Origin: Escherichia phage YX22
Length of the DNA stretch: 64,000 nt
Reading direction: 5' to 3' (one strand)
Sequence record: OR776998
The notes under the pieces are model-generated. The model saw only the letters and a list, made by a program, of their open reading frames with translations, had not been told where the DNA came from and searched no databases. The position numbers were made by a program, and so were the translations under genes. Positions within the stretch are counted from its first letter, which is position 1; each line of letters starts with the position of its first letter. Shown here in pieces: positions 44,015 to 48,259 of this stretch.

Positions 44015-44584
44015 ATGCACATTAACACAGCAATCATGAAACACATTATTCCTTTGTTAGCAAAATACGAAGGGGAACGCGCCACGAAAATCCCTTTTGG
44101 AACAATCACCGATGAAGTGAAACGCCTGACAGGTAAAAGTATCAATTTCCGTCGCGTTATTGAATCTGCGTTAGAGTTGGCCCGTTCTGATTTACGAAAT
44201 CCAACATTTTCATTTAATATTGACATAACTTCTTCACTTCGACAAGAAATGGAAGAATCATCACAAGCGCGGCGCAATCGTTTCCGTCATTTATATGTTC
44301 GTAACGAATTCTCTGAAGGTCGTGTTGGTATGAAACTGGAGTCTATTCGTTCTGACATTTGCTTCACTGTCAACTATGTTTTAGAGCCAGAAAGCGGGCG
44401 CATTTATTTTGGTGCGATTATCGGTTTCTATGGGAACTCTATTAATGGTTGGGCAGAACGTGTTGGATTAAAAGAAACCCAGAACACTCATTCCACACCT
44501 TCTACCCATTATATGACGCATGAAGCTGCTGGCGAATATGTTTACCTTCTGCGTCGTATTGTGAAGTTAGAAGTGTTAAAATAA
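44015..44584 (+). CDS. hypothetical protein, first gene of the RNA/tRNA unit
   Basis: 189-aa ORF. No motif recognised. Confidence 0.6.
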   Translation: MHINTAIMKHIIPLLAKYEGERATKIPFGTITDEVKRLTGKSINFRRVIESALELARSDLRNPTFSFNIDITSSLRQEMEESSQARRNRFRHLYVRNEFSEGRVGMKLESIRSDICFTVNYVLEPESGRIYFGAIIGFYGNSINGWAERVGLKETQNTHSTPSTHYMTHEAAGEYVYLLRRIVKLEVLK

Positions 44585-44591
44585 CGCTTTA

Positions 44592-44615
44592 TTCAATAAA
44601 GAATTGCAGTAAAGT
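44592..44615 (+). promoter_or_regulatory. weak TTCAAT-N12-TAAAGT element
   Basis: The box is perfect, but the spacing and the -10 element are off-consensus. Confidence 0.25.
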
Positions 44616-44641
44616 TAGTTGCATGGAAGGGAGGGAACACT

Positions 44642-44788
44642 ATGTTTTACATGATGTTACTCCTCATCCTCCTGATCGGGATTACCTTTACTCTCCTGGG
44701 TCTACCCGATCAGTCTGGTAAACAGACGCCCACTTCGGCGCATCCGGTTTTGAGTGAAGGTTCGTCCGCACTGCTGTGGGCAGTGTAG
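44642..44788 (+). CDS. small membrane peptide (48 aa)
   Basis: Below the ORF-track cutoff. Strong GGGAGGG SD. MFYMMLLLILLIGITFTLLGL is a TM helix. Confidence 0.5.
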   Translation: MFYMMLLLILLIGITFTLLGLPDQSGKQTPTSAHPVLSEGSSALLWAV

Positions 44789-44989
44789 CTCAAAGAGGAG
44801 AGGATTTTTCAAATTAGCTGGGCTGTAGTAAAGTATTAAACACGAGGCGAATAGCGCGGTGGTAGTAGGGCTGGAACCCGAAACCAGGAAAGCCCAGTCT
44901 CAGGGCACCGTGACGAATAGAGGCGTAATATCAACCTCGCTGGTGTCGGTGGACGCACTGACCGTCGGAGAACGAAACCCCCTGTTGTA

Positions 44990-45079
44990 GCGTGATTAGC
45001 TCAGATGCTTGAGAGCGCCCCGTTGGCGAGTCGACACCAACATATAGGGGAGGACGGATCTGCCAGGTTCCATCACGCC
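44990..45079 (+). ncRNA. tRNA-like module (aberrant anticodon and T arms)
   Basis: Perfect 7-bp acceptor GCGTGAT/ATCACGC and a D arm TA-GCTC..GAGC. The anticodon arm is replaced by a 9-bp arm with a 10-nt loop. Confidence 0.35.
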
Positions 45080-45765
45080 GACAACATTATGAGTCTTCGT
45101 AGAGGGTTCATAATGTTGCGTCAAAGGGCAACACAGGCTCCTGTTGGTAGAATTAACTTGATTCATAGTTCCTGCTGATCTTCCCGGATTCGAAGGAGCA
45201 CCAACAGGCGAGGCCGGATGCGTAAGTTCCGGCAAAACGATGGTGGCACCCTCGCCAACAAAATAAAAGGTTTTATCAATAACGGGTTACAAAGTATAGT
45301 TAACCCACTGAACGGCAAGCTGTTTGAGTCCTGGTCACTCATAGCGTTGTGAACTAAGACAGGTACGTTTAGGACTCAAACAGGTTTTCGTTGTGCGTGA
45401 CTTTGCGGGTTTTTAGAAACTGACCAAGCAAATAAATGCTAATGATTCCGAAGTTCTGATGGCGGCGTAATAGCCTATAAGTCAGCGGGGTATTCCAGTT
45501 CCCTGTAACAGAATCTGGCGCATCGCGGCCCTGAGATGTGATTAATAAGTCAGGGCATACAATGACAATTCATTCACATGATAACTTGTCAGCAATCTGT
45601 GAAATTGTTTGTAGGCATACGAACAAGAGGTAATTCGAGGGAGAATCGGCTCCTACCGTGTAACAGACCAAGTGACGTACCACTAAACCGTCCCGGGCGG
45701 TCGAAATGTGGGGAGATGAGAGTGGTCCCCTGAAGTTATCAGTTGAATGAATTGTTAAATAAAAT

Positions 45766-45891
45766 GCCGTTACATCTGACTGTCCAAAGGGGATAATCTC
45801 CTGAGTAAGCAGAGGTGGGTTGCCTAAGTCAGATGGGATGTAAGGTCAACGCTGGCCGAACATTTGGGTTCGACTCCCTAAAACGGCACCA
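45766..45891 (+). ncRNA. 126-nt tRNA-like RNA ending in ACCA
   Basis: GCCGTT/AACGGC acceptor, GGGTTCGACTCCC T arm, and an encoded A-CCA. The core is expanded by a 9-bp helix (45773-81 with 45827-35). Confidence 0.4.
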
Positions 45892-46804
45892 CATCTTTGA
45901 GGATATTCTCACGAGTATCTTGAAAGATGTGAGCGAAGTCTTGCCATCAGCCCTGATCCCTGGCAGGTGAAGGGCACACAAATCGAAGTGCCTTGACAAT
46001 TTATCTTAAACCCAAAGGTTGATCTACAAATTGGGCGGCCAATCCGGTGGACGATAACAGCATATTGGGCCATACTGTTGAGTCAGGGCACTTCGATTTG
46101 TGAACTTGAGAGAGCATTGGGTGAAATAGACCATGCCTTGCAGATTGCGATGCCTACACATTCCGGACACTGGTGGGCACCAAGAAGAACTCAGTAGCAG
46201 ACGAGCCATCAGGGTTAGCTACCCGGCGCGGCGAGGACTGGGAGGCCGAACTAAGGGGAAACCCGAGACAGGCGTAGTATTCTCAAGTTCACAAAATGAA
46301 GAGCATTTAAAGAGTTCGATTCTCTTTCAGGCCATTCGTGGTGTGATGTGAGTCATGAATGTTCTTCATCTTTGGGTGATTTTATGTTGCCGGGCTATCA
46401 ACCCATGCTTGCTGGAGCAACCAGCGGCTCTGAATCAACCAGCCAGCCTCGTTTGGTCCGAGCGTTAGAGGACAAGTTGCTTCTACATAGAAGCTGCGAG
46501 TTTTAACATTTGGTTGCAACTTTGATGGCTCTGGATTTTATAAACCATGTCTATGGGTGACGCGGGATCTTTAGTACCAGAGCTATCAAAGTTGTGTCCA
46601 ACCCGATCTTGCAAGCCCGTATCCCTGTATGGTTAAGACTTGCAAGTGGAAAGCCCTGGAAAAATAAACGCCTGTGGCGAGGCTATGGTGCAAGCCAAAG
46701 ACCCACAGAAGCGCATGCCGTGAGGCGCACAAACAGGCATGCATGAACTGATCATGCACAAACGGGATAAAGGGTTGACAGTCCTTGGTTGGTCACAATA
46801 ATTT

Positions 46805-46881
46805 GGTCCTGTAGCTCAGTCGGTTAGAGCAGTGAACTCATAATTCATTGGTCGTTGGTTCAAATCCAACCAGGATCACCA
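46805..46881 (+). tRNA. tRNA with CAU anticodon (Met by anticodon; ileX-like, so possibly Ile2 reading AUA)
   Basis: Full cloverleaf: GGTCCTG/CAGGATC acceptor, GCTC..GAGC D arm, GTGAA-CTCATAA-TTCAT, GTTGG-TTCAAAT-CCAAC, encoded CCA. The variable loop TTGGTCG matches E. coli ileX. Confidence 0.9.
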
Positions 46882-47134
46882 TGTTAAGGGGTGTGAAACA
46901 TAACACTCCGACAAACACAGTAAGCGTTGCAGCCAGCTGTGTATAAAATGGGGATGACTCCGCATCGGAAACGATGCCCCAACTTCCAGAAATGGTCGGG
47001 CGCAAAGCCTGTAAAGTTCCAGGAGATCGAACCAGAAGGCACTGGTCGCCAGTTAACCAATCGGCGCTGAGAAGCGCGGGGAGTTGGGCTACGGCAGATC
47101 AAATGCTCAATCGGGTGTGAAGCCCGTCCAAATT

Positions 47135-47223
47135 GGAAGGTTGCCCGAGAGGTTTAAGGGACTCGACTGCTAATCGAGTGGGGCTTTTAGCCCCCGAAGG
47201 TTCGAATCCTTCACCTTCCGCCA
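47135..47223 (+). tRNA. tRNA-Ser (GCU)
   Basis: Class II cloverleaf: GGAAGGT/ACCTTCC, CTCGA-CTGCTAA-TCGAG, long variable arm GGGGC-tttta-GCCCC, GAAGG-TTCGAAT-CCTTC, G-CCA. Confidence 0.9.
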
Positions 47224-47442
47224 AATTACGGGCGTGACTTCCTGAAGAGTTAGAAGATGTGCATGTCGACTCTCTCTCGTAATCGGGGTGTTTAGGAAGT
47301 TAAGAAAATCGCGGCGAGGATAGTGAAATGCAAATAGCTTTCTCTACGTCGACGACTTCAGGTTCGACTCCTGACGCGCTCTCCCATAGGGTAGTACCAG
47401 TGCAAGCGTGTAGTCTTTCAACCCATCCCATCGATGTGGTGT

Positions 47443-47471
47443 AGCCGGATATCCTATCCGGCTTTCTTTTT
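47443..47471 (+). terminator. rho-independent terminator ending the RNA/tRNA unit
   Basis: AGCCGGATA-tcc-TATCCGGCT followed by TTCTTTTT. Confidence 0.75.
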
Positions 47472-47528
47472 ATCCCTGTCTTATTATCTTCTTATCGACC
47501 CAAGCATGTTCTCCTTTATCGTAGTTTG

Positions 47529-47555
47529 TTCAATGATACAAAGGGGGTTTAAAAT
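47529..47555 (+). promoter_or_regulatory. TTCAAT-N15-TAAAAT promoter-like element
   Basis: Upstream of the 47597 gene. It overlaps the GGGGGTT/AACCCCC hairpin. Confidence 0.4.
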
Positions 47556-47596
47556 TTAACCGTTAACCCCCCTATCATAGATTTGAGGATACACTA

Positions 47597-48259
47597 ATGC
47601 GTAATGTTTCTATCTGGGAATTGAACGAAGTGATTTCCCATGACACCCCTCCAATTGTCAGACTCTTCCAATACAAGGGTGTCAAGCGCACTCTGAATGA
47701 GTTCCTGTCGCCTGTTTACGTCTACCGTGATGGCGGGTTCTTCCGCCGCGATAAAAACATCCCGAACCTTGGTATGACGTTTGATTTGAGTATCAAAGGC
47801 CAGGTTGTATTGATGGGTTATGGTAGCCTAGAACAATCTGAGAAAGGCCAGGGCGCTCCACTTATGGTCTTCGGTTCGTTTGAACAAGCCGTGCACTGGC
47901 TGATCAGAAACGGATATGATTTCTATGGCGAAGAAAGCGCCAATTGGCGTCGTCGCAAGGTCAAGTCTGTTAATCTGGTGGATTTGAATCTGATGTACCA
48001 GGCCATGGCTCGCGAGTACGAAAAGAATCTCGTCAAGCCTGTCGCCCAGGAGAACAATAACAATGTTGTTAACGACGCAACTGAGTCTTCTCATCATGAC
48101 GTGAACATCGTTCCAGCCTGTGAAACGAAAGCGCCGACACCGCCCACTCCTCCGGCCAGTCGTGTTCTGAATGATCAGGGCGCTCCGGTAAAACAAAAGG
48201 TCAAGAAGCCGACTTTCATGGAAAACATGATGAAGTTCCTTCGTCTGTTCAAGAAATAA
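47597..48259 (+). CDS. hypothetical protein
   Basis: 220-aa ORF with a GAGGA SD. Confidence 0.65.
   Translation: MRNVSIWELNEVISHDTPPIVRLFQYKGVKRTLNEFLSPVYVYRDGGFFRRDKNIPNLGMTFDLSIKGQVVLMGYGSLEQSEKGQGAPLMVFGSFEQAVHWLIRNGYDFYGEESANWRRRKVKSVNLVDLNLMYQAMAREYEKNLVKPVAQENNNNVVNDATESSHHDVNIVPACETKAPTPPTPPASRVLNDQGAPVKQKVKKPTFMENMMKFLRLFKK

Follow-up and report, generated by a model that had tools for sequence, protein, structure and literature searches.

A selected, tRNA-shaped module with a palindromic apical loop in a non-coding RNA island of Ackermannviridae phages

Locus and genomic context

This report concerns a 90-nucleotide (nt) element at positions 44990-45079 of a 64,000-nt stretch of DNA from Escherichia phage YX22 (record OR776998), hereafter the window, in which the acceptor stem and D arm of a transfer RNA (tRNA) are combined with an altered anticodon arm. 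The source of the window is a phage of the Ackermannviridae, and its closest records are the Escherichia phages PC3 and PH4, at 96% identity across 44500-47700. The module lies on the plus strand, as do the parts of the two RNA units described below, in a stretch of about 3 kb (44585-47596) that is poor in open reading frames (ORFs). This stretch is bounded on its 5' side by a conserved ORF of 189 amino acids followed by a hydrophobic ORF of 48 amino acids, and on its 3' side by protein genes. The hydrophobic ORF (44642-44788, MFYMMLLLILLIG..., phrog_8415) is itself conserved and stands directly 5' of the non-coding island. Searches of Pfam and PHROGs with the proteins flanking the island were uninformative.

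Within the ORF-poor stretch, ARAGORN and Rfam call a tRNA-Met (46805-46881), a tRNA-Ser (47135-47223) and no others, and the island of phage tRNAs comprises Met, Ser, Asn, Tyr, Trp, Gln, Arg and Lys. A consensus scan places promoter-like sites at 45273-45300 and 46775-46802, and the sole terminator-like hairpin (47443-47473) lies at the end of the stretch. The longer putative transcript to which the module would belong, here named RNA-A, is located at the head of this island of tRNAs and non-coding RNAs. It is followed by a second unit, RNA-B, that resembles transfer-messenger RNA (tmRNA).

Structure of the module

Reading of the letters bears out the features listed in a preliminary description of the element. 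A perfect 7-base-pair (bp) acceptor-type stem is formed by GCGUGAU (44990-44996; GCGTGAT in the DNA) and AUCACGC (45072-45078; ATCACGC). The D arm is of tRNA type (44997-45017) and consists of U8 and A9 (TA, 44997-44998), GCUC (44999-45002), a loop at 45003-45012 (AGATGCTTGA in the DNA, AGAUGCUUGA in the RNA), GAGC (45013-45016) and the nucleotide equivalent to position 26; its stem is essentially invariant among relatives. The anticodon arm is replaced by an elongated arm (45018-45050) of 9 bp, made of an outer stem CCCC/GGGG (45018-45021 with 45047-45050) and an inner stem GUUGG/CCAAC (45022-45026 with 45037-45041), with a 5-nt bulge on the 3' side (AUAUA, 45042-45046). Both stems covary, and the arm is capped by a 10-nt apical loop (45027-45036; CGAGTCGACA in the DNA, CGAGUCGACA in the RNA) that reads CGA-GUCGAC-A. 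The variable-loop equivalent, AGGAC (45051-45055), corresponds to tRNA positions 44-48, reads AGGUC in most relatives and is kept in all lineages. Also as first described, a canonical T loop and CCA are missing: no GTTCRANYC is found, and the 3' acceptor strand ends with a C in the discriminator position (45072-45079) followed by GAC.

Two features go beyond that initial list. One is a short, covarying stem of 3-4 bp in the T position (GGAU/UUCC, 45056-45059 with 45068-45071), which with its non-T loop CUGCCAGG occupies 45056-45071. The other is a helix that extends the acceptor stem by pairing a leader strand, UGUUG (44983-44987), with a trailer strand, CAACA (45082-45086). The 90-nt module is not free-standing: it ends in this leader-trailer helix and forms a single domain within a conserved RNA that is at least 250 nt long.

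Two other identities were considered for the element and rejected. An archaeal-type intron would require a bulge-helix-bulge, and the 5' strand has no bulge. A protein-coding feature was rejected because 1-nt insertions and deletions in the bulge among close relatives break any frame and disrupt the overlapping ORFs. A search with the Rfam 15 families, ROOL, GOLLD and YrlA among them, finds nothing that overlaps 44800-45260 at E<=10 or at gathering scores.

Distribution among Ackermannviridae

The module and its flanks are found in about 249 Ackermannviridae phage records at 70-96% identity and are almost never annotated; in a few records, a hypothetical protein is annotated over the module. 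For comparison, divergent relatives were fetched (EspM4VN, SFP10, KpS110, IME250, PhaxI, cp16 and SKML-39) together with IMG/VR and metagenome loci, and 21 distinct ortholog sequences were read from about 27 fetched loci. The copy in PhaxI (L005, 5980-6110) differs from every other Kuttervirus copy by numerous deletions of one base, which look like sequencing errors of that record. A covariance model, R1, was built from 19 orthologs, with PhaxI and one near-identical sequence omitted, and comprises the cloverleaf plus the leader-trailer helix.

In Kuttervirus, Agtrevirus, Taipeivirus, Miltonvirus and Nezavisimistyvirus, each genome gives a single hit with R1. Close relatives score 87-125 bits, Miltonvirus (Serratia phages 2050H1, 3M and Kevin) 38-51 bits and Nezavisimistyvirus (Erwinia phage phiEa2809) 50 bits, the last two genera having been missed by blastn with the window element. 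As a control of specificity, 80 loci with ordinary tRNAs, taken from a GTDB genome scan that yielded ordinary tRNAs only, score at most 33.6 bits, and the top ones are archaeal intron-containing tRNAs. Searches of IMG/VR for extra diversity gave the same set of approximately 18 contigs. With filters off, nothing in Dickeya phage LIMEstone1, the one Limestonevirus examined, exceeds 6 bits by R1, and the 90-mer has no blastn match at E<=10 among 5,426 E. coli genomes. Vibrio phage K476 (L029:7961-8074) has a tRNA-like sequence, uncalled by the tools, with canonical D and T arms and an insert of about 40 nt at the anticodon-loop position; it scores weakly with R1 (13 bits) and is probably not homologous to the cloverleaf.

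The preliminary description had proposed a pseudo-tRNA or a deliberately altered tRNA, and had named beforehand the finding that would speak for simple mutation, namely an intact tRNA at this place in a relative together with an unconserved arm. Instead, all 21 distinct orthologs have the same altered arm. A metagenome scan for anything of 80-110 nt between the conserved flanks returned no intact tRNA, giving the same altered element (L032, L034) and two chance hits. The altered tRNA is the part of the proposal that stands, with a core that survives and a new arm that is conserved and covaries; the decaying copy is not upheld.

Covariation and selection

The tRNA-shaped fold is maintained by selection across the five Ackermannviridae genera. 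The strongest evidence, which is independent of any alignment, is the complementarity of the acceptor strands lineage by lineage. The 7 bases directly 5' of UAGCUCAG and the 7 bases directly 3' of the short stem are perfect complements in every lineage, the pairs being GCGUGAU/AUCACGC, GUGUGAU/AUCACAC, AUGGUUG/CAACCAU, AUGGUUG/CAGCCAU and UGACCUG/CAGGUCA. In three deep lineages, the acceptor sequences are wholly different but complementary.

In the model-fitted alignment, 97.4% of cells are paired and both-side changes occur at 17 of the 29 base pairs, including all 7 acceptor pairs. None of 500 shuffles reaches these values, sliding the 3' partners gives 2-4 double-change pairs, and RNAalifold independently recovers the same cloverleaf. 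Compensatory change is present in five of the six helices. The sixth is the D stem (GCUC/GAGC), which is not testable by covariation because it does not vary, apart from a mismatch at one pair in one of 24 aligned rows. Variants of the outer stem of the long arm include UCCC/GGGA, CUC/GAG and UCCU/AGGA, and those of the inner stem GCGG/CCGC, GAUGG/CCAUC and GCCGG/CCGGU. In the T-position stem, G-C and A-U alternate at one position and G.U, A-U and G-C at another. One pair of this short stem is G.U in 12 sequences, and the many G.U pairs establish that the plus strand is the RNA strand. Both-side changes extend to four of the five pairs of the leader-trailer helix, which in the Serratia (CAUUUGAC/GUUGAAUG) and Erwinia (UCUGAA/UUCAGA) phages is continuous with the acceptor stem, for a total of 13-15 bp. 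The module persists in the five genera, and the flanking intergenic sequence is otherwise unalignable.

tRNA features kept and lost

What the module keeps of a tRNA is its core, consisting of U8, A9, the GCUC/GAGC D stem, A14, G15, A21 and a 5-nt variable loop, AGGUC. In tRNAs, the L shape is held by core base triples and by the tertiary pairs 8-14 and 15-48, which these nucleotides form. Set against the tRNA family (RF00005), the 7-bp acceptor stem is likewise as expected. The D arm falls short of the family in that its stem, U8, A14 and A21 are present and G18G19 is absent. Its loop is variable, with structured inserts of about 20-50 nt in Klebsiella, Serratia and Erwinia phages, a tolerance that is expected if the elbow is unused. 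In place of a 5-bp anticodon stem with a 7-nt loop there is a bulged arm of 4+5 bp with a 9-10-nt loop, CRAGUCGACA, and in place of the T arm there is the 3-4-bp stem with a loop of 8-10 nt (GCGCUAAU in some copies, as opposed to the CUGCCAGG type). CCA is not encoded, and the trailer is paired with the leader. The absence of G18G19, the T-psi-C loop, the 7-nt anticodon loop and CCA holds in all lineages. ARAGORN does not call the module a tRNA, and the Rfam tRNA model is silent even at E<=10 over 6 kb.

The bases at the ends of the module also vary, with A or C at position -1, G, A or U at +1, and C, G or U at 73; there is no RCCA, and base 73 is base-paired in the Serratia and Erwinia phages. 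Since leader-trailer pairing extends the acceptor helix, there is no free CCA end, and judging from its sequence the closed-ended module does not look like a substrate for tRNA end-processing or charging. Nor does it have the features of the tRNA-like domain of tmRNA: pair 3:70 is G-C or A-U rather than G3.U70, and both T loop and CCA are lacking. In a direct alignment, the module aligns well with E. coli tRNA-Val(UAC), which is suggestive of descent from a class-I tRNA most resembling tRNA-Val. This ancestry is no more than suggestive because the acceptor sequence varies freely in other genera.

The palindromic apical loop

The loop of the long arm reads C-R-A-GUCGAC-A in four genera. One Kuttervirus loop has GUUGAC, in which self-pairing is retained through G.U. 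The Miltonvirus loops, A-GUCAUGAC or A-GUCAUGAA, contain the GUCGAC palindrome with a central insertion of AU, and their core UCAUGA is still palindromic. With a self-complementary 6-nt core, a loop of about 9-10 nt and unpaired purine flanks, the arm has the properties of a kissing hairpin. At the DNA level, GTCGAC occurs at 15 sites in the window, which is the number expected by chance, and no conserved second GUCGAC partner was found in the island. Because the motif is not enriched and has no conserved second site, a homotypic loop-loop contact is the simplest RNA-level reading. By analogy with known kissing hairpins, the loop probably mediates RNA-RNA kissing.

The larger RNA-A

The putative RNA-A transcript would run from about 44845 to at least 45090. 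Its putative promoter, TTTTCA-17-nt-TAAAGT (44806-44834), is suggested by a motif, GCAGTATAGT/TAAAGT, that is conserved before both RNA units; this motif scores below the threshold of the consensus scan. Three elements upstream of the cloverleaf are conserved with covariation from Kuttervirus through Nezavisimistyvirus. The most 5' of these is a three-way junction recovered by RNAalifold (44855-44912), in which a closing helix, CGCGG/CCGUG, flanked by AAUAG motifs, surrounds two hairpins. Covariation of this helix is seen in the pairs CGCGG/CCGUG, ACACAG/CUUGUGU, CCUGC/GCAGG and CCCGC/GCGGG. It is followed by a hairpin, GUCGGUG-GACG-CACUGAC (44944-44961), whose stem covaries (GUG/CAC, CCGGG/CCUGG, AGGG/CCCU) below a GACG loop that is invariant in the five genera. 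The third element is a hairpin with a conserved ACGAAAC loop (44967-44981) and stems such as GGAG/CUCC, AAGGA/UCCUU and GAGAU/AUCUC, the window copy having one A.C mismatch.

Downstream of the cloverleaf, RNAalifold predicts two hairpins, AUUAUGA...UCAUAAU and UGUUGC...GCAACA (45086-45133). They are invariant in Kuttervirus, Agtrevirus and Taipeivirus, and are therefore not testable by covariation; the Serratia and Erwinia phages lack them. The segment 45139-45256 holds a stem-loop, CCUGUUGGU...ACCAACAGG (45139-45209), and a truncated second tRNA-like module, GGCGAGG...CCUCGCC-A (45208-45256), whose T arm is deleted in the window. SFP10, PhaxI and SKML-39 have the second module in intact form, with the T arm UGUGG-UUCGAUU-CCGCA (GUGUGGUUCGAUUCCGCAC), and EspM4VN lacks it. 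Among the fetched loci, it lies at about 6215-6340 in L002 and at 7080-7171 in L027. The Serratia phages also keep the T arm, and ARAGORN calls the ortholog there tRNA-Cys(aca).

The tmRNA-like neighbor RNA-B

RNA-B (45308-45555) is identified through Rfam and covariation as an unannotated, tmRNA-like coding RNA without a recognizable tRNA-like domain. It is preceded by a sigma-70-like promoter, TTATCA-16-TATAGT (45273-45300), that is found by the consensus scan and conserved in alignments. Its tag frame, GCU AAU GAU ..., encodes ANDSEVLMAA (45438-45467) and is closed by the stops TAA TAG (45468-45473). The frame has no in-frame start codon, and a stop lies 8 codons upstream. Orthologs of RNA-B, which include L002:6542, L003:6626, L007:6536, L027:7362, L028:8475, L157:1190 and L158:1596 among the fetched loci, encode the tags ANDDVVLMAA, ANDNTFLAVA, ANDNAYLAVA, ANDNAYLMVA, ANDNAFLMAA and ANDNEFKVAA. 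Synonymous changes occur, and variation proceeds codon by codon in 12 phages.

The Rfam model tmRNA_permuted aligns the resume region and tag of RNA-B at 24-33.5 bits, under its gathering score of 47, and ARAGORN reports no tmRNA in any examined locus. Covariation is seen in a helix around the stops, in a pseudoknot stem and in the hairpin at the terminus. RNA-B has a 12-bp hairpin tipped by only about 40 nt at the place where a permuted tmRNA holds the T arm, acceptor and CCA. In each of approximately 12 cloverleaf-bearing phages checked, representing all five genera, the cloverleaf is followed by the tag at a distance of 290-350 nt, and LIMEstone1 has neither the cloverleaf nor RNA-B. A candidate pairing between RNA-A and RNA-B, GAGAACGAAA/UUUCGUUCUC, is perfect in SKML-39 and KpS110 and fails in the window, the Serratia phage and the Erwinia phage; it was dropped because it is not conserved in all lineages.

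Other structured RNAs in the island

Several further structures share the island. A third tRNA-like module of 126 nt (45768-45893), GCCGUUA...GGGUUCGACUCCC-UAAAACGGC-ACCA, has a T arm and a conserved encoded CCA, and its discriminator varies (A, U or C). A long hairpin, CAUCUGACU/AGUCAGAUG, replaces its D and anticodon region; the module is present in some relatives only, and no tool calls it. Two more modules are likewise uncalled as tRNAs. One at 46230-46345 has the T arm AAGAG-UUCGAUU-CUCUU followed by UCAGGCC, and one at 47230-47390 has the T arm UCAGG-UUCGACU-CCUGA followed by CGCGCUC, its ortholog being annotated as a pseudo 'tRNA-OTHER' in SFP10 and PhaxI. Between the tmRNA-like unit and tRNA-Met, an inverted repeat of about 20 bp (45978-46106; ACAAAUCGAAGUGCCUUGACA ... 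GUCAGGGCACUUCGAUUUGU) that is conserved in relatives marks another structured RNA. In the Klebsiella phages KpS110 and P01, Rfam STnc100 has a match within the same island (48.7 bits, the gathering score being 47; L003:7582-7795 and L036:2542-2756), which is annotated as a small RNA in P01; the window has no such match at E<=10.

Discussion

An explanation of the module has to accommodate what is directly supported, namely its structure, conservation, tRNA-like core, closed ends and linkage to the tmRNA-like unit. The account that may serve best, which is put forward tentatively, is that of a repurposed tRNA fold acting as a rigid four-way junction within a longer phage non-coding RNA and presenting a self-complementary loop. 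Selection would keep the tRNA core as the part that sets an L-shaped four-way junction. With the D-loop/T-loop elbow lost, the anticodon stem-loop exchanged for a 9-bp bulged arm and the acceptor end closed by leader-trailer pairing, the module would be neither excised nor CCA-tailed nor aminoacylated. It would presumably escape processing altogether and stay an internal junction of the RNA-A transcript, taking no part in decoding. Its task could be architectural, in that the long arm would be held at a fixed angle to display a self-complementary loop of 6-8 nt (GUCGAC with A flanks). Such a loop might kiss its own copy on another RNA, in the manner of the dimerization site of human immunodeficiency virus type 1 (HIV-1) or the bridges of ROOL and GOLLD.

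A number of observations weigh against this account. The single-sequence minimum free energy of -28.9 kcal/mol (z = -0.99 relative to shuffles) denotes a stability that is not unusual, and the case for more than chance is therefore comparative. The covariation counts come from an alignment fitted to the model, with just four to five deep lineages behind them. Between the acceptor stem and the leader-trailer helix, Kuttervirus-type phages have a 2x3 internal loop, where cleavage is possible. The ends of the RNA-A transcript are putative. With regard to the loop, the evidence for selection on palindromy is thin: the independent loop states number about four, and inserting a dinucleotide at the center preserves a palindrome by chance one time in four. 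The loop would be accounted for equally well by a dimeric protein or by pairing with another RNA that bears GUCGAC.

Of the alternatives, an unlikely one that still deserves attention is that the module is a tRNA-like processing signal, at which RNase P together with RNase Z/BN or RNase E would cut the ends and free the flanking RNAs, by analogy with the T4 tRNA cluster and MALAT1/mascRNA. The stretch contains several promoter-like sites and one terminator-like site (47443-47473), so that long precursors in need of processing are plausible. The island also holds true tRNAs along with further tRNA-like modules that have T arms, and the acceptor and short stems stack to about 11 bp. However, the T loop and elbow, the main recognition element of RNase P and RNase Z, are missing. 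The leader and trailer are paired, covary and are continuous with the acceptor in two deep lineages, and a paired leader and trailer are expected to hinder RNase P. Positions -1, +1 and 73 vary without RCCA. The paired ends, the missing T loop and the lack of conservation at the cleavage sites place processing below the main account. The strong constraint on the tRNA core, beside stems that vary freely, would also suit a decoy, a more doubtful proposal in which the module mimics a tRNA and titrates a host factor that binds the tRNA body, such as a defense anticodon nuclease, a toxin or a modification enzyme, and offers the bound factor no cleavable anticodon loop. Some of the isoacceptors in the island are known targets of anticodon nucleases, and the apical loop can be counted as invariant. 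On the other hand, no candidate partner was identified and the neighboring proteins are uninformative; the loop is unlike any anticodon loop, and a decoy leaves both the palindromy and the closed ends unexplained.

The constant association with RNA-B raises the question of whether the module is its tRNA-shaped partner in a split, phage-encoded device for trans-translation or ribosome rescue. The two co-occur at 290-350 nt in five genera and are both absent from LIMEstone1, and RNA-B has a tmRNA tag, a stop-codon helix and a pseudoknot, with about 40 nt in the place of the tRNA-like domain. Yet the cloverleaf lacks G3.U70, a T arm and CCA, its ends are closed, its acceptor sequence is free to vary and therefore holds no aminoacylation identity, and RNA-A and RNA-B share no complementarity that holds across all lineages. 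Such a partnership is improbable on this evidence. It is a similarly long shot that RNA-A and RNA-B are halves of one phage system, either a split rescue and tagging device or an inhibitor of host trans-translation, in which an uncharged domain, possibly multimerized through its loop, would replace the tRNA-like domain of tmRNA. Least credible by far are readings without RNA function, whether as a tRNA pseudogene in decay, a DNA-level feature or a protein-coding one. Neighboring tRNA-like modules do decay, the second having lost its T arm in the window and being absent in EspM4VN, and in a few records the element is covered by an annotated hypothetical protein. Against these stand the compensatory changes in five of six helices, the G.U pairs specific to the plus strand, the frame-breaking 1-nt indels in the bulge and the persistence across five genera.

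Non-decoding RNAs that derive from tRNAs, such as T4 species 1 and 2, are an established kind. Large structured RNAs next to the tRNA islands of phages are likewise known (PMC12286853). What sets the module apart is the tRNA half that is retained, the closed ends and the palindromic loop; a literature search returned no description of the element, none of a tmRNA-like gene in Ackermannviridae and none of the tag peptides. Annotation of phage tRNA islands usually stops at the calls of tRNA finders, with the remainder left blank or filled with spurious hypothetical proteins. In the present island, about 2 kb of such unannotated space carries RNA structures under clear selection. The module offers a clean natural case of a tRNA fold retained for its shape, keeping the half that other mimics discard. 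The linked pair of RNAs occurs in a phage family that is widely used in the biocontrol of Salmonella, E. coli O157 and Klebsiella, and if RNA-A and RNA-B did cooperate, they would represent a new viral route to interfere with or replace ribosome rescue. Even without such cooperation, the module defines a new RNA family suited to a covariance model, transcript mapping and structural work, and RNA-B may merit a report of its own.

Comparison with known RNAs

The closest parallel to the apical loop is the dimerization initiation site of HIV-1, whose loop is AA-GCGCGC-A. Both have an A-flanked 6-nt palindrome in a 9-10-nt loop (AA-GUCGAC-A in the module), a resemblance at the level of sequence. 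Unlike kissing hairpins of the HIV-1 type, which are free stem-loops, the hairpin of the module is the long arm of a tRNA-type junction.

ROOL and GOLLD are multi-domain phage RNAs found near tRNA islands that assemble by kissing loops, and GOLLD can embed tRNAs (PMC12286853). RNA-A is similarly phage-encoded and located beside a tRNA island, whereas its sequence and secondary structure are unrelated to theirs, with no Rfam match at E<=10. RNA-B, for its part, resembles the circularly permuted two-piece tmRNA (RF04321) in its long P2-like hairpin, its A/U-rich upstream stretch, its resume context (AUAAAU|GCA AAC GAU) and its tag, which ends in AA or VA before the stops. It differs in its sub-threshold score and in a hairpin that has no T arm, acceptor or CCA.

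The module shares with E. coli tRNA-Val(UAC) and RF00005 the 7-bp acceptor, the D-arm core, the order of the cloverleaf and a similar variable loop (AGGUC in the module, GGGUC in the tRNA), and like tRNA-Val(UAC) it has a G-rich stem 5' of the 3' acceptor strand. It departs from a canonical tRNA in the loss of G18G19, the 7-nt anticodon loop, the T-psi-C loop and CCA, in a T stem of 3-4 bp and in a closed acceptor. Non-decoding RNAs derived from tRNAs have a precedent within a phage tRNA cluster, that of T4, which encodes species 1 and 2 (RNA C and D). The module may be placed beside these, mascRNA and the tRNA-like domains of YrlA and tmRNA as a tRNA-derived fold that does not decode. In those RNAs it is the acceptor/T-arm half that survives, and tRNA enzymes process them, whereas the module dispenses with the T loop and keeps the D arm and core within closed ends.

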